Source: Patescibacteria group bacterium (GTDB taxonomy: Bacteria; Patescibacteriota; Patescibacteriia; Magasanikbacterales; GWA2-37-8). Taken from it: 64,000 bases of DNA. Under the pieces are notes generated by a model. It was not told where the DNA came from, did not search any database, and saw only the letters and a program-made list of their open reading frames with translations. Below are positions 1,720 through 53,539 of the stretch, piece by piece. The stretch spans positions 343,296 through 407,295 of the forward strand of contig JAKLGL010000001.1 of NCBI GenBank assembly GCA_022710645.1, in the 5' to 3' direction. Both the position numbers and the translations under genes were made by a program. Numbering within the stretch: position 1 is the first letter of the stretch; every line of letters starts with the position of its first letter.

Positions 1720-4539
1720 CTATTTCAAATACTTTCCCGTCCAACTCTTTTTGGACTTTAATATATCCTTAACCGTTCCGGCAGCTACCAATTCCCCGCC
1801 TCGTTTTCCGCCTTCCGGGCCCAATTCTATTACCCAATCGGAGTTTTTAATAACATCCAAATTATGTTCAATTATCAAAATAGTATTACCTTTTTCCACC
1901 AATTGTTTCAAGACTAATAATAATCTTTTTATATCTTCAAAATGCAAGCCTGTAGTCGGTTCATCTAAAATATAAAGAGTTTTCCCTGTGGAAGCGCGCG
2001 CCAATTCGGTTGCCAATTTTATTCTTTGCGCTTCACCGCCCGAGAGTGTGGTGGCCGGCTGACCAAGCTCCAAATAACCCAATCCAACTTGACGTAAAAC
2101 GTTTAATTTATCGGCTATTTGTCTTTGATCCACAAAAAACTTGTAAGCTTCTTCCACGGTCATTTTCAAAACTTCGGCAATATTTTTTCCTTTATAATGA
2201 ATTTCAAGCGCTTCCTGATTATATCGAGAACCGTTACAGTCATTGCAAGTCACAAAAACATCGGCTAAAAATTGCATTGGAATTCGGATATATCCTTCTC
2301 CGGCGCAAGTTTCACAACGTCCTCCGCCTTTGACATTAAAACTAAATTTTCCAGCATCATAACGTCGCATACGGCTTTCCGGCAAAGAAGAATATAAATC
2401 TCTAATCAATGTAAATATCCCGGTATAGGTGGCCGGATTACTGCGCGGGGTTCTACCTATCGGACTTTGATCAATAGCTATAACTTTATCTATATTGTCG
2501 ACTCCTTTGATTTCTTTATGTTTTCCGGGCTCGTCTTTGGCGCGGTAAAAATATTTGGATAAATATTTTCCCAAAATATCCACGACTAACGTTGATTTAC
2601 CGGAACCGGACACACCGGTGACGCAAACCAATTTAGAAAGCGGGATGTCCACGTTTATTTTTTTCAAATTAAAACCTTCAGCACCGATAATACTAATCTT
2701 TTTCTCCGCTGTTTTTTTGGTGTCTTTTTTCTCACGCAAATCATTCTCAAAATCGTCAGAAACACTAGCTCTTCCAAATAAATAATCTGCAGTTAATGAA
2801 TTCTTTGCTTTTTTGATCTCCGGTAAAGTTCCGGCTGCAATTATTTGTCCGCCATAAACTCCGGCTCCCGGACCGACATCTATCAAATAATCAGCTTCTT
2901 TCATGATAGCTGCATCATGTTCCACCACTATAACCGTATTACCAAGATCTCGTAAATATTTCAAAGTGTCTATCAATTTTTGGTTATCTCTGGCGTGTAA
3001 ACCGACAGAAGGTTCATCCAGCACATAAACCACACCGGTTAAACCGGAAGACAACTGCGTAGCCAAACGAACACGTGTCGCTTCTCCACCGGAAAGAGTG
3101 TTCATCGATCTGGTAAGATTCAAATAATTCAAACCTACGCGAGACAAGTTTTCCAAACGCGTCAAAATTTCTTTAACTATCGGCTCTACTATATTTTTTT
3201 TCGGCAATCCGGCTTTCTTCAAAAGATTTTTGAAAAAAATCACACTGTCTTCAATATTCATTTCCGATAAATCAGCGATATTGCGATCTTCAAATTTTAC
3301 CGATAAGGATTCTTTTTTTAATTTTTTACCTTCACACATTGAGCAAACCTGCTCTTTCATGTATTGTTCTATTTCTTTACGAATATAATCGGAATCCGTC
3401 TGAAGATGTCTTTGTCTGAGATCTTCCATGACTCCGGGGAAAACGATTTTTTTACCTTCAACTTCATAAAGTTCTTTACCTGTACCTTTCAAAATCAAAT
3501 TCATTATTTTGTCGGAAAAACCGGAAACCGGAACTTCCAACGAAAAACCATGCCTATCAGCCAAGGCCTTGAGTATCTTTTGGTAATATGTTTGATTTCC
3601 GGTTATACGTGTCCAAGGTTGAATAGCTCCTTCAAGCAAAGAAAGTCGCGGGTTAGGTATCACCAAAGCGGGATCTACTTCCATGGTTATACCAAGACCG
3701 GTACAACGAGGACAAGCCCCAAAAGGACTGTTGAAACTGAAATTACGTATATCAAGATCAGGCATGATTCTTCCGCATTTCATACAAAGTCCGACTGTTG
3801 AAAACATTTTATCCCCTTGATCCGTACCTATATAAATCAAGCCATTGCTTAAATCTAAAGCCGTTTCAACCCATTTTGTAGGATCTTGTCTTTTAATATC
3901 TGTTATCCTTCCGATAAGTAATTCTATTTGGAAATTTTTTTTCGGATCAAAAGCCAATGTCGCCAATTCATTTATTTTCATTACTTTACCGTTAACTCTC
4001 ACATGATCAAAACCCGATTGTTCAACTTTTTCCAATAAAACTCGCGGCTGCTCCACAATATCATTGCGAATCAAAGGAGAAAGAATTAAAATTTCTTTAT
4101 TTTTTCTACCCAACTCGCGTACCATTTCTACGATTTCTCCATATGAATAAGAGATAACTTCTTCTTCACAATCCGGACAATATTGTTTACCTGCGCGAGC
4201 AAACAATAACCTCATAAAATCATAAACCTCAGTAACAGTCCCGACGGTAGAGCGCGGATTTTGGGTATTGATACGTTGATCTATGGCGATAGTCGGTGAA
4301 AGACCTTCTACACCGTCAATATCGGGTTTATCGCGCACTTCCATAAATTGACGCGCATAAGAAGACAAACTTTCCGCATAACGACGTTGTCCTTCGGCAT
4401 AAATGGTATCAAAAGCCAAACTGGATTTTCCCGAACCTGACAAGCCGGTTATTACCACCATTTTATTTTTCGGAATATTTACCGAAATATTTTTGAGATT
4501 GTGTACTCTCGCTCCCCTTATTTTTATCATTTCTTGCAT
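1720..4539 (-). CDS. uvrA: excinuclease ABC subunit A
   Basis: 939 aa; two ABC ATPase modules ([25 protein letters not shown]), zinc-finger Cys clusters, LSGGEAQR signatures. Confidence 0.95.
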
Positions 4540-11660: not shown

Positions 11661-11691
11661 AAAAAATTTCGCTGATTAAGCGAAATTTTTT
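11661..11691. terminator. bidirectional intrinsic terminator (rnj / hypothetical paralog A1)
   Basis: aatttcgc-tgattaa-gcgaaatt flanked by A-run and T-run. Confidence 0.6.
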
Positions 11692-11707
11692 AAATAAACA
11701 ATTCTAT

Positions 11708-12406
11708 TTAATTTTCCACATTTTCTTCTTGTTCTTTAAATTCTTTTTCTGTTAAGATTCTGCCAAGATAATTTACTTTATTTTCTCGTAAATTATTTAT
11801 GAATTTAGAAAATTCTACGCCCTTATCAAAAGCTTCTGCTATATTTATAATATTTCGTTCACTTTCAGCTGTGTAATAATTACCAACCTGAACAAACTCT
11901 TTAGGAGAAAGATACACTTTTAAACTACCGGAATTTTCCATACCATCAAAAATATCTTTCTTTTCCTCGTGCCATTCAATAAAAGGAGTGAAAGTTTTTT
12001 CTTCTTCCTTAGTAATAACTTTCTGCTCTTCAGCTAAAAGAGGTAACCCAGTATTCAAATCTTGTCTACTTGTAAATTCATCTTTAAATTTAATTATATT
12101 ACTGATTATTTCAATAGACTTTTTACTTAAATCTTCATCCTGTACATCTCTAATTCCAGTACGAAAACATGGCAATTCCAACTTTTCTGCTAATTTTGCA
12201 ATTTTAATTAATTTATCTTTGGTATTTTTATCTAATTCACCACTATTTTTAACAAAATTATCTTTTCCTTTATAGAATTCGTCTTCCAAAGGTTCGTCTT
12301 TTTCAAATAAATTTTGCATTTCTTTTGTAAACTGTTTTAATAGTTCTTTTGTAACTTTTTCTTCTACTTGGTTTTGTAATTCTGGATTATGTCCTTTTTC
12401 TCCCAT
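11708..12406 (-). CDS. hypothetical acidic Lys/Glu-rich protein, paralog A1 (no recognisable domain)
   Basis: 232 aa; roughly 60 percent identical to the ORF at 13449..14171 (shared blocks LIKIAKLAEKL.LPCFRTGIRD, SGSLKVY.SPK, EFSKFINNLR..KVNY.GRILT.KEFKEQEE). Confidence 0.6.
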   Translation of the reverse strand: MGEKGHNPELQNQVEEKVTKELLKQFTKEMQNLFEKDEPLEDEFYKGKDNFVKNSGELDKNTKDKLIKIAKLAEKLELPCFRTGIRDVQDEDLSKKSIEIISNIIKFKDEFTSRQDLNTGLPLLAEEQKVITKEEEKTFTPFIEWHEEKKDIFDGMENSGSLKVYLSPKEFVQVGNYYTAESERNIINIAEAFDKGVEFSKFINNLRENKVNYLGRILTEKEFKEQEENVEN

Positions 12407-12440
12407 ATATTTAAAGTTAAATTAATTAATAACACCCTAT

Positions 12441-12471
12441 ATTCTACCCCCCCCCTATAACTTTTTGTCAA
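12441..12471 (-). promoter_or_regulatory. promoter of paralog A1: TTGACA-19-TAGAAT with a C9/G9 homopolymer in the spacer
   Basis: minus strand reads cgatttcgTTTGACAaaaagttataGGGGGGGGGTAGAATatag; -35 lies within the conserved box ctttttgtcaaacgaaatcg. Confidence 0.5.
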
Positions 12472-12562
12472 ACGAAATCGGTCTTCGGACTACAGGTTAC
12501 TGCCATTCCCGCAAATCCGCCGGTTGACGGAAGGAATTCCGTAACCAATAAATTACACTAAC

Positions 12563-13181: not shown

Positions 13182-13218
13182 ATTTTTAATGATTAAAATA
13201 ATTTAAAAACTGTTTATA

Positions 13219-13248
13219 TTTTACAGCTCCCTGTAACTTTTTGTCAAA
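13219..13248 (-). promoter_or_regulatory. promoter TTGACA-18-TAAAAT sharing the conserved upstream box
   Basis: minus strand cgatttcgTTTGACAaaaagttacagggagctgTAAAATat. Confidence 0.45.
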
Positions 13249-13270
13249 CGAAATCGGTCTTCAAGTTACT

Positions 13271-13376
13271 GTCATTCTGATCCGCCTCAGGCGGAGAAAA
13301 ACCTGCCTGCCGGCAGGCAGGTCTGCAATAAGCAATTATTTTACTTGCAGATCCTTCGTCTACGACTCAGGATGAC
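13271..13376. repeat. MITE-like palindromic element copy A (TIR GTCATTCTGA / TCAGGATGAC)
   Basis: 106 bp; terminal inverted repeats; internal palindromes ccgcctcaggcgg and cctgcctgccggcaggcagg; same family at 14264, 44562, 45306. Confidence 0.7.
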
Positions 13377-13395
13377 AAAAACACCTAAAACAAAT

Positions 13396-13433
13396 AAAAA
13401 ACTTCGTCCACCAACTGGCGGACGAAGTTTTTT
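13396..13433 (-). terminator. intrinsic terminator downstream of paralog A2
   Basis: cttcgtcc-(10 nt loop)-ggacgaag + T-run. Confidence 0.5.
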
Positions 13434-13448
13434 AATACACAAATCTTT

Positions 13449-14171
13449 TTAATTTTTTACTTTTTCTTCTTGTTCTTTAAATTCTTTATCTGTTAAAATT
13501 CTGCCAAAATAATTTACTTTAGTTGCTCGTAAATTATTTATAAACTTAGAAAATTCTACATCTTGATTCAACATCTCTGCTATATTTATAGTTTCCTGAT
13601 GACTTTCGGATATGTAATAATCACCAACTTGGATAATATCTTTGGGAGAAAAATACACTTTTAAACTACCTGACTCTTCCATATATCCACCGAGAGCATC
13701 TACGTCTTCTTTGTTCCATTCAATAAAAGGAATAAAAGATCTTTCTTCTTCATTAACAATGACTTCCTGTTCTTTCAATGAAATAGGAAATCCTTCTGAA
13801 TCTTGTCTGTTTGTAAATTCATTTTTAAATTTAATTTTATCATTAATTACTTCAATAGAATTTTTACTTAAATCTTCATCTCGTCTATCTCTGATTCCAG
13901 TACGAAAACATGGCAATCCTAACTTTTCCGCTAATTTTGCAATTTTAATTAATTTATCTTTGGCATTTTTATCTAATTTACCATCATTTTTAACAAGATC
14001 ATTTTCTCCTTGATAAAATTCGTCTGCCAAAGGTTCTTCCTCTTCAAAAAAACTTTGCATTTCTTCTGCAAGCTGTTTTAATAATTCTTTTTTTCTTTCC
14101 TCTTCTCTTTTAGAATCAATTTCTTTTTCCGTAGCTTTCCCTGGCTCAAAACCTGGTTTTCTCTCTACCAT
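13449..14171 (-). CDS. hypothetical acidic Lys/Glu-rich protein, paralog A2
   Basis: 240 aa; paralog of 11708..12406. Confidence 0.6.
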   Translation of the reverse strand: MVERKPGFEPGKATEKEIDSKREEERKKELLKQLAEEMQSFFEEEEPLADEFYQGENDLVKNDGKLDKNAKDKLIKIAKLAEKLGLPCFRTGIRDRRDEDLSKNSIEVINDKIKFKNEFTNRQDSEGFPISLKEQEVIVNEEERSFIPFIEWNKEDVDALGGYMEESGSLKVYFSPKDIIQVGDYYISESHQETINIAEMLNQDVEFSKFINNLRATKVNYFGRILTDKEFKEQEEKVKN

Positions 14172-14209
14172 ATATTTAAAGTTAAATTAGTTATTTAATA
14201 ATATCCTAT

Positions 14210-14240
14210 ATTCTACCCCCCCCCATTTACTTTTTGTCAA
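14210..14240 (-). promoter_or_regulatory. promoter of paralog A2: TTGACA-19-TAGAAT with C9/G9 spacer tract
   Basis: Same architecture as 12441..12471; C-run at 14216..14224. Confidence 0.5.
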
Positions 14241-14263
14241 ACGAAATCGAGCATTTAATTATG

Positions 14264-14352
14264 GTCATCCTGAGTGAAACGAAGGATCTCTTAAACAGTG
14301 CTTTGGAAAATAAGTTTAACTATAAGGGATTCTTCGCTGCGCTCAGAATGAC
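14264..14352. repeat. MITE-like palindromic element copy B
   Basis: 89 bp; gtcatcctgag...gctcagaatgac termini; internal cgaaggatc / gattcttcg blocks shared with other copies. Confidence 0.65.
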
Positions 14353-14411: not shown

Positions 14412-15210
14412 CATCCAAAGCTATAAGCCGAATTTCGTCTGTCCGTTGTCTAGTAAAAGACACTGGAGAGATGGTCATTTATCTGGTCGGACACATCGCT
14501 GTGCCGATCTTTGCGAGCTAACTTTCTGAATTCCGACAAGTCGGAAAACATTGCTCTTGCGCCAGGCAGGGTTTGGCACGTCTTTGGCATTACTGCCAAT
14601 CGAGTATGATAGCCCATATATAAGACTTTCACACACTTTTCACCTTTGGCGAGGAAAATTTAATTTTCCGAGTCAATCCCGCCCTTCTTTGTTCCTAATG
14701 TATTCCCTAATCTATCTTTAACCTTTCTCCAAGCTCCACCATATTGTTTTAGAGCTTTTTCTCTATCAAGAGCATCTTGTTTATCAGCAAAAGCTTCATA
14801 ATAGATCAATTTCCAAGGTTTATATTGCTTTGTATAATCAGTACTTCCTGAGTTATGCTCATCAAGTCTTTTATCAGGACTGTGCTGAGTAAAGCCAATA
14901 TAAATTTTATTTGAAAATTGTAAACTTTGGAGAATGTAAATGAAATACATAATACTAAGAACAACGAAGGGCGGGATAACTCGCTGCTTGCGCAGCTCGT
15001 TAGTATAGTCTCTGTGCCACTTTCCCTTTTGCATTGTTACCAATGCAACGGCGGGTATTACCCGCTACCCCTTACCTTGCAAGTAAACGAGACCTCTGTT
15101 TACCAAGAAAAACTTGATTTACAGCCTGTCTATAATTGTTTACTTGATAGAGGCGTTCGGACTTTCCTCTCTAGTCGTATTCCGACTGGAGCGACCATCC
15201 GCTTTGAACC
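14412..15210 (-). ncRNA. rnpB: putative RNase P RNA (bacterial type) carrying a roughly 270-nt insertion in a peripheral helix
   Basis: Minus strand. P4 5' strand GAGGAAAGUCCGAAC (rc of 15154..15166) and P4 3' strand ACAGACGAAAUUCGGCUUAU (rc of about 14422..14441) covary as in E. coli (GGG/CCC replaced by GAA/UUC, bulged U kept). P1 is UCAAAGC/GCUUUGG. GNRA hairpins present; AGAUAAAUGAC resembles the P18-region AGAUGAAUGAC. Consensus promoter TTGACA-17-TACACT (15216..15244) puts the TSS at the P1 start. Terminator hairpin at 14376..14405. Confidence 0.55.
14660..14950 (-). CDS. GIY-YIG nuclease superfamily protein (YhbQ/UPF0213-like), nested inside the putative RNase P RNA
   Basis: MYFIYILQS...KIYIGFTQHSPDKRLDEHNSG...WKLIYYEAFADKQDALDREKALKQYGG matches the GIY/YIG/R/E core of the YhbQ family; start chosen at the Met that aligns with family N-termini. 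Longer ORF to 15043 rejected. Confidence 0.6.
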   Translation of the reverse strand: MYFIYILQSLQFSNKIYIGFTQHSPDKRLDEHNSGSTDYTKQYKPWKLIYYEAFADKQDALDREKALKQYGGAWRKVKDRLGNTLGTKKGGIDSEN

Positions 15211-15244: not shown

Positions 15245-15553
15245 GGGTATGACGACATTTTTTGGCTAAAAATAGCATAAAAAACTCAAATCTCAAAACG
15301 CAAAAGTCAAAACTACAGCCTTAAATGTCAGGGCTGGACAAGTTTTAAGGTTTTGAACTGTGGCTTTGAGCTTTGACACTTGAGTTTTGAGATAAGCCCC
15401 TTTTCTCTTTGACTAAAACCCAAATCTATAATAAAATAACAATAATTTCAATTAATCTTTTCCATACTTCTATATATCGCTTGCTTCGCAATGATATAGG
15501 CTCATTCGCTCAAAAATATTTATAAATAAACATTTTATTCACTCATTTAGCTT

Positions 15554-40326: not shown

Positions 40327-40578
40327 GGTGTTTCCTCCAAAAAAGATGATAACTAACGTTTATTTGAAAAAGAACATCAAATCTACAGCTGCAGAATTGA
40401 CTGCTTATCTTAATAAAAAAACGGTCTTTTGTCAAGTATTTTCATATATTGACAATGAGACAATGATATTTTCCTATTTTAGCCAAAATATGCTATAATA
40501 TCTTTGTTCCAAAAAAATACGATTTTTGTATTTTTGGACTTTATAAACTTTATAACTTTACAAACTTTATAAACTTTT

Positions 40579-43254: not shown

Positions 43255-43389
43255 CGCTGTTTTAAAAAAAATGGTATACTATAATTAAGAAATTTTCAAT
43301 TTACAATTTTCATTGAATTTTTAATAAACTAATTTTCAATGTCTTACTTTATAACTTTATAACTTTAAGAACTTTATAAACTAAACACT

Positions 43390-45157: not shown

Positions 45158-45305
45158 AAAAATTATTAAAATTTAAAGAACTGTAACTAACTAACAGCAA
45201 ATTATAGCACATTTTCGCACTTTTGTCAAGGGGTAAATTTGGCTATTATGAGGCAAAGTATAAAATAAAAAACCGCCCTTGCGAGCGATTTTAGTTATTT
45301 TATTT

Positions 45306-45407
45306 GTCATTCTGAGGAGCTTAGCGACGAAGAACCTGCCTGCCGGCAGGCAGGTCTGTAAAAAGCAATAATTCTGTTTACAGATCCTTCACTGCGTTCA
45401 GGATGAC
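45306..45407. repeat. MITE-like palindromic element copy D (contains the cctgcctgccggcaggcagg core)
   Basis: gtcattctgagg...aacctgcctgccggcaggcaggtctg...gttcaggatgac, 102 bp. Confidence 0.7.
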
Positions 45408-45432
45408 AAATTGTTTCGTCATTCTAAAATCT

Positions 45433-48773: not shown

Positions 48774-48850
48774 TTAAAGTCCATAAAGTTCATAAAGTCC
48801 ATCAAGCCGTGACTTTATAGACTTTCGACTTTACAGACTTTTAACTTTTA
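48774..48850. repeat. inverted array of 9-bp repeats (ATAAAGTCC x3, then inverted GACTTTAYA x3) in the rpsA / 48855 divergent promoter region
   Basis: taaagtccataaagttcataaagtccatcaag...gtgactttatagactttcgactttacagactttta. Confidence 0.6.
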
Positions 48851-52477: not shown

Positions 52478-53539
52478 TTATTTTTTTAACAACATCCTCA
52501 AAAACTTTATAAACCTGCCTACCGGTAGGCAGGCTTTTATAATTTTATAAACTCTATATTTTAAAGGTATTTCAAAAGTTCCGGGAGCTTTAAAATATTC
52601 TCCACCAAAACCAAGTTTAAATCTGGTCACGCCCGCATACTGATGTTTTTCGTCGTAAACCCATTCGTCGTCCGTACCTTTTACAACAGGTGCAATTCCA
52701 AAAAAATCATAATTTGCACAACCTTCTTTTTTGGCTTTATTTAAGCCAAAATCCTGTACCAAATATGGCGCCATTAAGCTACGATATTCATGGTCGGAAG
52801 CACCGTAAAGATAAGTAAATGTTTGACCAAAGCGGACAAACACGCCAGTGGCAATAGGTTTATTTTCAAAATAAATTATTACTTGTGAAACCATCTCGGA
52901 ATTTAAAACTTTTTCATAATGTTTTTTTTCATGAAGACGAAAAGCATCGCGCTCCCCTGTTCTTTTCATCAAATCCCAAAATATTTCCAAATCTTTTTTC
53001 TCTTCTACGCGTAAATCTTTTTTCTTGCTCAGTCCGATATTATATCTGGTTTTGGAATGCATGGCAGAAAGTATTTCTTCATAGCTCTTATCTAATTTTA
53101 AAATAAGAGTGTTGGAAGGGTTTACGTCTTTAACTTGAACCAATTTATGATTTTTGAATTCAGATTTTTGAATGATATTTGGTTCTATTCGCCAGAAGAC
53201 ACATTTTTTATCTTTTAAATACTGTGAAATAACATCCACGACATTGGTCATTGGGAACCTGCCTGCCGGTAGGCAAGGTTGGTCATTGGTCATTTTAATA
53301 ACCGGCCCTTTCGGACTAAAGGCGTATTTAAAACCAAACGGCAATTTTTCATAAACGACTAAAGCTACAGCTACATGTTCATTGCCTTCAAATAAAGCCA
53401 ATTTTTCCACTTCTTTTCCTTCTGTTAATAAAATATCGCCCCAAGCAAAAGACTGTTCAAAAGGGTTAAATTCAGAAAATTGAGATAAAAAACTATCCCA
53501 TTGTTCTTTGTTTAAATTTTGTTTAATTTCTAGAGCCAT
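52478..53539 (-). CDS. FemAB-family peptidyl/aminoacyl transferase (FemX/MurM-like)
   Basis: about 353 aa from MALEIKQNL (SD aaggaaatt); FemAB-like blocks (FAWGDIL, FSPKGPV, YLYGASDHEYRSLMAPYLVQ); contains two in-frame copies of the CCTGCCTRCCGGYAGGCAGG palindrome. Confidence 0.6.
   Translation of the reverse strand: MALEIKQNLNKEQWDSFLSQFSEFNPFEQSFAWGDILLTEGKEVEKLALFEGNEHVAVALVVYEKLPFGFKYAFSPKGPVIKMTNDQPCLPAGRFPMTNVVDVISQYLKDKKCVFWRIEPNIIQKSEFKNHKLVQVKDVNPSNTLILKLDKSYEEILSAMHSKTRYNIGLSKKKDLRVEEKKDLEIFWDLMKRTGERDAFRLHEKKHYEKVLNSEMVSQVIIYFENKPIATGVFVRFGQTFTYLYGASDHEYRSLMAPYLVQDFGLNKAKKEGCANYDFFGIAPVVKGTDDEWVYDEKHQYAGVTRFKLGFGGEYFKAPGTFEIPLKYRVYKIIKACLPVGRFIKFLRMLLKK

Follow-up and report, generated by a model that had tools for sequence, protein, structure and literature searches.

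Palindromic repeats that enter genes in frame are already known as a kind of element. The Rickettsia palindromic insertion RPE-1 measures about 100-150 bp, the GC clusters of yeast mitochondria are short GC-rich hairpins of which some invade coding regions in frame, and MITEs, which derive from IS elements, create target-site duplications. The Rickettsia palindromic elements as a group (RPE; Ogata et al. 2000, as cited in PMC3733652) are in-frame insertions in functional protein genes, and shorter intragenic forms, RPE-4 and RPE-6, are listed in PMC3733652. The GTAG- or CGTC-tagged REPs (Di Nocera et al. 2013, PMC3733652) are GC-rich stem-loops of 20-40 bp that are mostly intergenic; some are found inside ORFs, including tRNA-synthetase genes, where they add residues, and they have been proposed to be mobile via hairpin DNA (PMC3733652). 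Bacterial MITEs (Correia/NEMIS; Coxiella QMITEs, PMC5896051; review PMC10969869) are non-autonomous elements of 70-300 bp (PMC3733652) that end in inverted repeats and can contribute peptide segments to proteins. Repetitive hairpin-forming elements of sponges (PMC2800124) are short GC-rich hairpins in AT-rich organelle genomes. Finally, free-standing GIY-YIG homing endonuclease genes occur in tRNA clusters, as for SegB of phage T4 (PMC2988022, PMC13096335), and in our literature search SegB was nowhere linked to a palindrome.

The window, by which we mean the whole 64-kb stretch of DNA analysed here, comes from an uncultured bacterium of the Patescibacteria type. It contains four matches to a 20-nt perfect palindrome, CCTGCCTRCCGGYAGGCAGG, hereafter P, while none was obtained in 100 shuffles (0 expected). 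The size of P, 20 nt, and its extragenic bias would fit a REP; its copy number here is 4 per 64 kb. Two copies lie within a single cell-wall enzyme gene of the FemAB/FemX family, and their in-frame reading as ACLPVGR and PCLPAGR, proposed in the initial annotation, was confirmed. As judged from alignments with uninterrupted orthologues, fem carries two independent in-frame palindrome insertions that the enzyme appears to tolerate. Both segments are probably independent insertions of a dispersed, non-autonomous 20-nt hairpin repeat, P, which is REP/RPE-like.

The fem gene was delineated from its ORF, Pfam match, synteny and fold and occupies positions 52478..53539 on the minus strand. The ORF is intact, with the ATG at 53539 and the stop codon at 52478-52480, and encodes 353 amino acids that match PF02388 (FemAB) with an E-value of 5.9e-44 and 150.9 bits, against a gathering cutoff of 24. 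A search with the protein retrieved 584 homologues. The gene order rnc-nusB-rpmF, fem, gyrA is conserved in four related loci (L001-L004), which are therefore true orthologues. The AlphaFold (AF2) model of the protein has a pLDDT of 81.9 and could be superposed with Foldseek on FemX from W. viridescens (1xe4/1xf8/1ne9; E about 1e-21, TM 0.72-0.78), so that the predicted structure has the same tandem GNAT-like two-domain fold. We thus predict that the gene product is an aminoacyl-tRNA-dependent peptidyltransferase of the FemAB/FemX family. Independent assemblies, which came from different runs and pipelines, all contained the allele with both insertions at 100% identity, and no empty-site allele of the same strain was found among them.

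Insertion 1 is a segment of 21 nt at 53258..53278 (minus strand) that encodes PCLPAGR, residues 88-94, and was delimited by codon alignment with the orthologues L001 and L002. Its gene-strand sequence, CCT TGC CTA CCG GCA GGC AGG, corresponds to the 20-mer plus one internal extra base (CCTTGCC on that strand, GGCAAGG on the plus strand). The palindrome core at 53258..53277 contains one mismatch, and its hairpin has decayed in part, with an RNA fold of -11.9 kcal/mol (z -1.5). In L001 and L002 the uninterrupted site reads AAA ATG ACC AAT GAC CAA / TTC CCA ATG ACC AAT GTC, where the slash marks the position of the insertion; 18 nt are identical on each side and the gain is exactly 21 nt, or 7 codons. 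Correspondingly, a 7-column gap was present in 22 of 22 homologues in the protein alignment. Residues 85-93 were modelled as coil with pLDDT below 50, and the insertion is thus predicted to form a low-confidence or disordered loop after the SPKGPV strand.

The initial annotation had instead described a 42-nt gain (14 codons) at this site, including a 10-bp target-site duplication that a repeated MTN would reflect. Direct repeats do flank the site: CATTGGTCATT is found at 53242-53252 and 53284-53294, with a spacing of 42 nt. They belong to an ancestral tract of heptamers (ATGACCA-like units), one side of which, CATTGGTCATTGGGAA on the plus strand, is located at 53242..53257 and is contiguous with its partner in L001 and L002, while the other, TTGGTCA in 2.3 copies (TRF period 7), is located at 53279..53294 and is likewise present in these orthologues. 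Since both MTN repeats are already there in the uninterrupted L001 and L002, there was no target-site duplication at site 1. By the refuting test that the initial annotation set, homologues with the same 14-residue segment, the flanking seven residues (MTNDQ/FP-MTN) count as ancestral, being shared with the orthologues, but PCLPAGR does not.

Insertion 2 is also 21 nt long, is located at 52514..52534 (minus strand) and encodes ACLPVGR, residues 336-342, as delimited by codon alignment with L003. Its sequence on the gene strand, GCC TGC CTA CCG GTA GGC AGG, is a perfect 20-mer (52514..52533; a rare A..T allele) plus one base, and its predicted RNA fold is more stable (-16.6 kcal/mol, z -4.4). 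The position is the centre of a dyad, TATAAA/TTTATA, within the C-terminal helix, which in the AF2 model is split into H328-337 and H340-352; the insertion is thus predicted to kink a basic helix. A 7-column gap was again seen in the alignment, and the uninterrupted site in L003 reads ATA AAG / TTT ATA AAG TTC CTT AGG TCA TTG TTA AAA AAA TAA. The repeats noted previously around this copy are real, with AACTTTATAAAC at 52503-52514 and AATTTTATAAAC at 52541-52552, but the ATAAAG/ACTTTATAA repeats are ancestral, being already in tandem in L003, where the palindrome is lacking, and do not indicate a target-site duplication. Nor did the C-terminal copy capture 3' UTR sequence, as had been suggested. 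The tail FIKFLRxLLKK is kept in orthologues, with a basic C-terminal helix even in homologues of about 50% identity, and since L003 has the same tail, the last 11 residues are ancestral.

The distribution of the insertions was examined in 120 Fem homologues, among which only the protein of the window has the palindrome at the two sites (0 of the 119 others). The 11 closest homologues, with 60-75% identity, all lack it. The earlier proposal that a mobile palindrome had entered an enzyme gene in frame and been tolerated thus holds, given the uninterrupted orthologues and the 119 homologues without it. By parsimony, we infer that the polarity at both sites was gain rather than precise loss.

The two other copies in the window are intergenic and perfect 20-mers, at 13302..13321 and 45335..45354. 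The former is part of a 108-nt composite element (13270-13377) that is closed by TGTCATTCTGA and TCAGGATGACA and contains three internal hairpins (DNA fold -26.6 kcal/mol, z -5.4). The latter is part of a 104-nt composite element of the same architecture (45305-45408; DNA fold z -5.6) that adjoins the 3' end of ftsH and includes a 67-nt repeat, family D8, with 85% identity. A search of the window with Rfam at the gathering thresholds yielded two tRNAs only, and no known RNA family for P.

Outside the window, searches for P gave letter-for-letter matches at over 120 loci in genomes of many phyla, and the flanks are unrelated between loci. The genomes include GC-rich ones and those of cultured isolates, for example Winogradskyella echinorum KCTC 22026, Olivibacter oleidegradans CCM 7765 and a Flagellimonas. 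It was present in 48 viral stretches, compared to 0 for an arm-swapped palindrome and 2 for a palindrome of the same composition. Allelic variants and decayed copies exist as well. Other genes read P in all three frames, and P is therefore an element at the DNA level rather than a peptide motif. Full-text searches for the 20-mer and keyword searches, in a literature that they cover incompletely, yielded no description of the family, which appears to be undescribed.

The unit of insertion could be read directly from nested copies. Excision of exactly 20 nt restored a perfect outer 20-mer in 4 of 4 cases, always with the junction C/CGG; the unit is thus 20 nt and is inserted without target duplication. 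The clean coding copies, at both fem sites and in TrpRS, are of the type 20+1. To characterize the targets, we compared the flanks of P with controls. Stems of at least 8 nt were formed by the flanks of 9.8% of the copies versus 1.2% of the controls, and periodic runs of at least 8 were seen at 15.6% versus 2.2%, with the run continuing across the junction in 9% versus 1.3% (p=2e-7). P is thus enriched at hairpin apices and in short tandem repeats. At flank positions -5 to +5 there was no conserved target of 4-5 nt 5' of the insertion, and the junction biases were weak: T is avoided at -1, A is avoided at +1, and G/G is enriched. Identical bases at -1 and +1 were observed 49 times against 27.8 expected. 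A 1-nt target duplication was ruled out by the nested copies and by both fem sites, where no base is duplicated, and we read the excess as a preference for G/G steps. Only 14% of the copies were located in long ORFs, compared to a background of 73.5% (p=5e-36), and this approximately 5-fold depletion reflects purifying selection.

Insertions were also identified in other genes. In TrpRS, the residues GLPAGRQ correspond to an exact 7-residue gap relative to the solved structures 2a4m and 1yi8, and the filled DNA site, GAA G(G + 20-mer)TT, corresponds to GAA GTT when empty. Across Daviesbacteria the site is polymorphic: of 120 homologues, 8 are filled, and these belong to 7 clades. Either gain is recurrent, therefore, or precise loss is frequent; two distant carriers have the same GGS-LPAGRQ allele. 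Independent frame-restoring events could not be established, the two filled alleles differing by two transitions. ScpB, FtsK and RfbB also carry P, RfbB as a nested pair with a total of 42 nt, but their alignments to solved structures were too ambiguous for sizing of the inserts. In a viral sequence (L159), P is located in the variable loop of an apparently intact tRNA-Met. Two loci (L025 and L056) had been considered as tRNA genes split by P, but removal of P in silico restored no tRNA, and they are partial 5' tRNA copies beside GIY-YIG genes.

GIY-YIG nuclease ORFs were present in 10 of the 168 P loci. Eight of these ORFs lie no more than about 350 nt from P, where about 10% would be expected, and in 7 of the 10 cases P was 5' of the ORF. 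In L056 and L170, tRNA nucleotides 1-22 are followed by P, tRNA nucleotides 23-30, the GIY-YIG ORF and an intact tRNA, and the layout is similar in L097 and L029. An HsdS gene in L093 contains an in-frame fusion to a GIY-YIG domain, with P located before that domain. The window encodes a small nuclease of this type (14660..14950, minus strand), identified in the ORF list and by tblastn against the ORFs adjoining P in L029, L097 and L056 (E 3.6e-13). It is located 1.4 kb from the nearest copy of P, adjoins none, and is unlinked to the fem sites. Overall, the link involves about 4% of the P copies, while about 95% have no GIY-YIG gene nearby. A cassette with P at both ends, in which solo copies would be comparable to solo LTRs, was rejected since P was never found on both sides. 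The association could be indirect, if both accumulate beside tRNA-gene remnants; the small GIY-YIG family is the best statistical candidate for a trans-acting partner of P.

Several alternatives to an independent insertion of P at the two fem sites were considered. The model of the initial annotation, a MITE-like insertion of about 32 nt with a 10-bp target-site duplication (42 nt in all) and a second copy that fused the 3' UTR to the frame, accounts for the position and 42-nt spacing of the direct repeats, and the arms of the palindrome might be taken for terminal inverted repeats. It is highly improbable given that the uninterrupted sites have both repeats 21 nt apart (MTNDQFPMTN) within flanks identical over 18 nt, that the 11 C-terminal residues are conserved in orthologues and that the nested copies reveal a 20-nt unit without duplication. 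No IS element related to P was found in the P loci examined. Palindromes are deletion-prone, and the two copies might thus be ancestral in the fem lineage, retained here and precisely deleted in the relatives. The scattered filling of the TrpRS site, hard to explain without a strong hotspot or frequent precise loss, and the allele shared by two distant carriers are in line with such a scenario. For fem we consider it very unlikely, because the window's protein is the only one that is filled, the closest relatives all being empty, because site 1 (CAA/TTC) lacks bounding direct repeats that could guide a deletion of exactly 21 nt and because the flanks in the orthologues contain no scar. For a perfect palindrome seen in many MAGs, one might suspect that an adapter, a chimeric junction or another artefact of sequencing or assembly had been picked up, but the probability of this is negligible in view of the identical allele in independent assemblies, the copies in cultured isolates, the allelic and decayed variants and the frame-keeping, evolved state of the genic copies.

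Two further alternatives concern the mode of transfer. P could be a REP that is moved by a RAYT/IS200-type HUH tyrosine transposase via single-stranded hairpin DNA. The absence of target duplication and the preference for hairpin- or single-strand-prone targets would fit, in-frame intragenic REPs are documented (PMC3733652), and IS200/RAYT-like ORFs were identified in 3 of the 168 loci, one of them 34 nt from P. However, none of these three RAYT-like genes was flanked by P on both sides and none was found in the window. P has neither a GTAG nor a CGTC tag nor a conserved 4-5-nt target 5' of the insertion, and REP/RAYT pairs are normally species-specific while P is identical across phyla, which makes this origin quite unlikely. 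Somewhat less so, though still unlikely, is that P represents the end, target or immunity scar of a free-standing GIY-YIG homing cassette that enters tRNA genes, with solo copies, such as the two in fem, arising from off-target hairpin cleavage and capture of P. The proximity and 5' position of P relative to the nuclease ORFs, the recurrent tRNA-P-GIY-YIG-tRNA layout, the HsdS fusion and the nuclease gene in the window all argue for a connection. Against it stand the large majority of copies without such a gene, the lack of P on both sides, the need of homing for flanking homology, which is absent at the fem sites, and the possibility that neutral tRNA remnants simply act as sinks for P.

Under the favoured explanation, the insertion of P as a dispersed repeat, the element enters DNA as a 20-nt unit without duplicating its target and lands preferentially at single-strand- or fold-prone places such as dyad centres, hairpin loops, its own copies and short-period tandem repeats. 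Most genic insertions are lost. The survivors are those with a length that is a multiple of three (20 nt plus one base, or 7 codons) at places where the protein tolerates seven residues. In Fem these are the middle of the basic C-terminal helix and, behind the SPKGPV strand, a disordered loop. It counts against this explanation that an insertion of 20 nt would shift the frame of an essential gene, so that the additional base has to come with the insertion event itself or very close to it. P would probably move through a hairpin or a single-stranded intermediate and be mobilised in trans. More tentatively, P may be among the smallest mobile DNA units, spreading within and between phyla, probably by phages, and integrating into single-stranded hairpin loops or slipped tandem repeats without target duplication with the help of a widespread structure-specific nuclease in trans, for which the small GIY-YIG family found beside P at tRNA genes is a candidate, and thereby repeatedly adding 7-residue loops to Fem and TrpRS and extra arms to tRNAs; we regard this broader scenario as possible but doubtful.

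For the Fem enzyme itself, the effect is modest, with seven extra loop residues and a kinked C-terminal helix in a transferase that is otherwise intact. Nested copies, and the comparison of filled with uninterrupted sites in orthologues, reveal the exact boundaries of P. This makes it possible to test how integration without duplication occurs, how landing sites in hairpin loops, tandem repeats and tRNA loops are chosen, and at which rate essential proteins are remodelled. For annotation, P accounts for the recurrent CLPxGR, LPAGRQ and PACRQAG peptides in proteins, and likewise for small spurious ORFs in metagenomic bins of the CPR, Bacteroidota and others.

Compared with the described systems, P resembles the RPEs in being palindromic, in-frame and tolerated by proteins in a small AT-rich genome. 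It is set apart from them by length and taxon, since the RPEs are restricted to a genus and RPE-1 is much longer, whereas P is a perfect palindrome of 20 nt with a cross-phylum and viral distribution. Unlike REPs, P has no GTAG/CGTC tag, does not belong to a REPtron and is not species-specific; its palindrome is perfect and its unit is defined, at 20 nt. Transposition of the IS200/IS605 type shares with P the absence of target duplication but has a fixed 4-5-nt 5' target, which P lacks. From MITEs, P differs in its size of 20 nt and in the absence of target-site duplications at the fem sites and in nested copies. The organelle hairpin elements are, like P, short GC-rich hairpins that spread in AT-rich genomes, but they are organelle-confined and lineage-specific, whereas P is bacterial and viral and occurs also in GC-rich genomes. 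The loci L056, L170, L097 and L029 resemble SegB in having a small GIY-YIG gene directly beside tRNA genes. The known in-frame palindromic repeats of Rickettsia and of REP-rich proteobacteria are lineage-specific, while P is a bare 20-nt perfect palindrome that is unchanged across phyla and viral contigs.

The fem gene (52478..53539, minus strand, 353 aa from the ATG at 53539) encodes a product that matches the Pfam FemAB family (5.9e-44) and has 584 homologues, mostly in Magasanikbacteria-like Patescibacteria. Its AlphaFold model (mean pLDDT 81.9) superposes on FemX of Weissella viridescens with TM scores of 0.72-0.78. The loci of the closest homologues (60-75% identical) share the gene order rnc-nusB-rpmF / fem / gyrA, and these proteins are therefore orthologues. 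The palindrome core CCTGCCTRCCGGYAGGCAGG, a 20-nt unit here called P, matched four times in the window as compared to none in 100 shuffles; two copies are intergenic (13302 and 45335) and two are located in frame inside fem, one perfect (52514) and one with a single mismatch (53258). In an alignment of 23 sequences each fem copy corresponds to an exact 7-column gap, and the encoded segments PCLPAGR and ACLPVGR were confined to the window's own protein among the 120 Fem homologues compared. The proposal that a dispersed palindrome has been inserted twice, in frame, into fem thus stands.

The initial annotation further described a 42-nt insertion with 10-bp direct repeats. The repeats are indeed present, as CATTGGTCATT at 53242-53252 and 53284-53294 with a spacing of 42 nt, and as AACTTTATAAAC and AATTTTATAAAC flanking the copy at 52514. 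At site 1 (53258..53278) the window reads AAA ATG ACC AAT GAC CAA [CCT TGC CTA CCG GCA GGC AGG] TTC CCA ATG ACC AAT GTC, and the orthologous loci L001 and L002 are identical except for the bracketed 21 nt. Since these loci already carry both repeats, the gain is 21 nt rather than 42, no target site was duplicated and the MTN...MTN repeat is ancestral, being part of a heptamer-like tract, ATGACCA/ATGACCA/ATTCCCA/ATGACCA. At site 2 (52514..52534) the window reads ATA AAA [GCC TGC CTA CCG GTA GGC AGG] TTT ATA AAG TTT TTG AGG ATG TTG TTA AAA AAA TAA and the orthologous locus L003 reads ATA AAG TTT ATA AAG TTC CTT AGG TCA TTG TTA AAA AAA TAA. Compared with L003, the gain is again 21 nt without duplication, the ATAAAG repeats pre-existed as a tandem, and the C-terminal 11 residues are ancestral, which refutes the suggested capture of a 3' UTR. 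In the homologue alignment the 7-residue segments are insertions, whereas the 14-aa segment as a whole and the C-terminal tail are not, as MTN and the tail are ancestral; the earlier observation is therefore confirmed in part, and its interpretation likewise supported in part. The base in excess of 20 is found within the palindrome at site 1; at site 2 it can be read equally well as a neighbouring G or as one more A in the A-run. Independent assemblies (Logan SRR5007146, ENA ERZ795054 and NCBI HRY36618.1) matched the window's fem allele with 100% identity over stretches of 4.4 kb and 21 kb, which excludes an assembly artefact, and no empty allele was found among them.

In several lineages heptamer tandems encode the loop after SPKGPV (53244-53294), as MTNDQFPMTN or ISNFQFPISN, the homologues with a heptamer-type loop being P0005, P0010, P0012, P0028 and P0043. 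ISNFQFPISN is also present in Fem homologues that are only about 50% identical and, to judge from back-translation, is probably encoded by ATTTCCA repeats. The heptamer of the site 1 tract, TTGGTCA, may resemble the STRR heptamers of cyanobacteria.

In the protein model, insertion 1 (PCLPAGR, residues 88-94) is located in a coil (residues 81-96) between a strand and the helix 97-110, coincides with the sole long stretch of pLDDT <50 (residues 85-93) and falls in a loop that is hypervariable among the orthologues. Insertion 2 (ACLPVGR, residues 336-342) interrupts the basic C-terminal helix, leaving H328-337 and H340-352 as separate helices. As RNA, copy 2 retains a strong hairpin (-16.6 kcal/mol, z -4.4) and copy 1 is decayed (-11.9, z -1.5), with a bulged extra base and a mismatch. 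The gene fem itself is affected only modestly. Of more interest is the family, a pan-bacterial palindrome of minimal size whose junctions are exact and readable.

A scan of one genome per species recovered P in at least 120 stretches, and the taxa among the matches listed were CPR groups, Bacteroidota (cultured isolates included), Omnitrophota, Planctomycetota, Nitrospirota, Ignavibacteria and proteobacterial lineages. The flanks bore no relation from locus to locus. On viral contigs P was present in 48 stretches, as opposed to 0 for an arm-swapped palindrome and 2 for a palindrome of the same composition, indicating that the sequence itself is over-represented rather than such palindromes generally. 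Three alleles were observed, G-C/G-C (79 copies), the asymmetric G..T / A..C (42) and A..T (1), which is the type at fem site 2. There was no Rfam match at the P copies of the window, and full-text sequence and keyword searches, covering journals in part, gave no description of the family. One putative viral contig of 29.5 kb (IMGVR_UViG_3300037242_000417; L155, L164, L166) contained at least six copies, some of them within longer repeated units in both orientations.

In all four nested copies, removal of exactly 20 nt restored a perfect (or one-mismatch) outer 20-mer, and the junction was always C|CGG, one base off centre. P is thus a 20-nt unit that enters the tetraloop of a hairpin already in place and duplicates nothing. 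Where coding copies are clean they measure 20+1 nt (both fem sites and TrpRS), and a nested pair in RfbB (L036) totals 42 nt. A purine at -1 or a pyrimidine at +1 was found at 120 of 127 copies (p=7e-9), and identical -1/+1 bases, mostly G|G, were observed 49 times versus 27.8 expected.

Potential flank-flank stems of at least 8 nt (30-nt flanks) accompanied 9.8% of the copies versus 1.2% of control positions, with terminator-like hairpins carrying P in the loop among the examples. Exact tandem runs of at least 8 with a period of 5-11 nt were present in the flanks of 15.6% of the copies versus 2.2% of controls, and in 9% versus 1.3% the period was maintained from one side of P to the other (Mann-Whitney p=2e-7). 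The two fem sites belong to the tandem type: site 1 is in the heptamer tract, and site 2, in a 9-mer tandem, doubles as a dyad centre. At AT-rich loci, 14 of 101 copies were well inside long ORFs as compared to a background of 73.5% (p=5e-36), so that the copies within genes are the few that have survived. Genuine genes with P include those for TrpRS, FtsK, ScpB, RfbB, a histidine kinase and glycosyltransferases. P is translated in each of the three reading frames, most often as LPAGRQ, and is therefore an element of DNA rather than a peptide motif. In a tRNA-Met (CAT) gene of another viral contig (IMGVR_UViG_3300033148_008720; L159, 2284) P is placed exactly in the variable loop; ARAGORN called the gene intact at 92 nt, and as a canonical 72-nt tRNA once the 20 nt were deleted.

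In a Daviesbacterium TrpRS (L098), GLPAGRQ is an exact 7-residue gap relative to solved TrpRS structures, and the DNA reads GAA G[G + 20-mer]TT versus GAA GTT in uninterrupted alleles. (G/S)LPAGRQ was present at this site (KFNxxYGE|VFPIPE) in 8 of 120 Daviesbacteria homologues. With the insert masked, the carriers (P0123, P0129, P0136, P0146, P0155, P0174, P0232 and P0237; loci L098, L197 and L217) were scattered over 7 neighbour-joining clades, and the insert was missing from their closest relatives (85-90% identical). This is a site-specific presence/absence polymorphism; such a scatter requires that insertion strongly favours this site, that precise loss is frequent or that recombination spreads the insert. 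The two filled alleles differ by two transitions, so that their origins need not be independent.

Other repeats are found in the window and in Fem homologues. Two composite elements of about 105 nt (13270-13377 and 45305-45408), closed by TGTCATTCTGA and TCAGGATGACA, contain three internal hairpins, one of which is the 20-mer, and fold as DNA into a cloverleaf-like shape (z -5.4 and -5.6). A third related element (14264-14352) is of the GTCATCCTGAG...CTCAGAATGAC type, which is read in frame in other Fem homologues (P0090, and as ...PQDDK in P0016, P0045 and P0077). Further in-frame repeat-derived Fem segments are a TCCGCC...GGCGGA mini-hairpin, a GTCATTC...GGATGAC-type element and a (CAACTTT)n tract. 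In the fem gene of P0013 (L125, 398-1600) the P variant CCTGCCTACCGGTAGGTAGG, flanked by TTTCCAA and ATGACCA heptamers, supplies the stop codon, and a different mini-palindrome, GGATCCGCCTTTGGCGGA, is inserted in frame and read as SSRGGSAFGGKDIIN. The window also contains a duplicated gene segment (11684-12357 and 13425-14098; 1741-nt spacing, 82-86% identical) and three copies of a 59-nt repeat that has a poly-C run and ends in CTTTTTGTCAAACGAAATCG (12422-12480, 13198-13256, 14191-14249), upstream of neighbouring genes. Arrays of the 9-mers TAAAGTCCA, GACTTTATA and ACTTTATAA are located at 1598-1721, 48775-48848, 40538-40577 and 43346-43379, two of which are paired in inverted orientation and might fold into long hairpins; the helix YKVYKVIKFIKF at the C terminus in this Fem lineage is encoded by a 9-nt tandem of the comparable TATAAAGTT type.

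Clustering of all ORFs of the P loci revealed no dominant partner. A profile search identified small GIY-YIG nuclease ORFs at 10 of 168 P loci, within about 350 nt of P in 8 of the 10 (chance ~10% within an 8-kb locus); P was 5' of the ORF in 7 of 10 and on both sides in none. At L056 (2100-2480) and L170 (490-850) the arrangement runs tRNA nt 1-22, P, tRNA nt 23-30, GIY-YIG, intact tRNA, and the layout is similar at L097 (1400-1832) and L029 (3446-3884). The association would be direct if the nuclease acts on P or on hairpins, and indirect if P builds up in neutral tRNA remnants beside nuclease genes. IS200/RAYT-like genes were present at 3 P loci, none of them flanked by P, and there was none within the window.

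The cassette of a partial 5' tRNA copy broken by P, a GIY-YIG gene and an intact tRNA recurs in WWE3, other Patescibacteria and a viral contig (the four loci named and L025, about 4020-4165), with P at the D-arm, GGTA(GA)|G(A)GC. An HsdS-like type I restriction specificity ORF (L093, 2751-4892) has a GIY-YIG domain fused in frame centrally, directly preceded by P, read as PACRQAG. In the window, a small GIY-YIG gene (14660-14950, minus strand), 1.4 kb from the composite at 13270-13377, belongs to a repeat-rich island at about 11.7-15.4 kb and is adjoined by heptamer arrays at 15281-15314 (AAAACTC) and 15352-15391 (TTTGAGC).

We consider it likely that the fem segments represent P, a non-autonomous hairpin repeat integrating as a 20-nt unit without target duplication at DNA that is prone to single strands or has dyads; the identity of the mobilising enzyme is far less certain. 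Selection would purge genic copies except those of length 3n in tolerant places. The data establish where the insertions begin and end, how long the unit is, that targets are left unduplicated, which targets are favoured and that coding sequence is avoided, and that the fem copies fall in a loop and at a helix kink. That P passes through hairpin or single-stranded DNA, that it is mobilised in trans and when the extra base arises are inferred.

Rickettsia palindromic elements (RPEs) and intragenic GTAG/CGTC REPs contribute residues to functional proteins (PMC3733652), as does P, which also resembles the GC-rich hairpin elements harboured by AT-rich organelle genomes (PMC2800124). The GIY-YIG-beside-tRNA layout of P loci recalls SegB of phage T4 (PMC2988022). 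P is a member of none of the three repeat groups and, unlike them, is identical across phyla. It has no GTAG or CGTC tag and no REPtron (a RAYT gene with repeat copies), no target duplication and no IS-derived ends, and it is 20 nt rather than 70-300 bp in size. In-frame palindromic repeats as such are known, and the P family among them appears undescribed.
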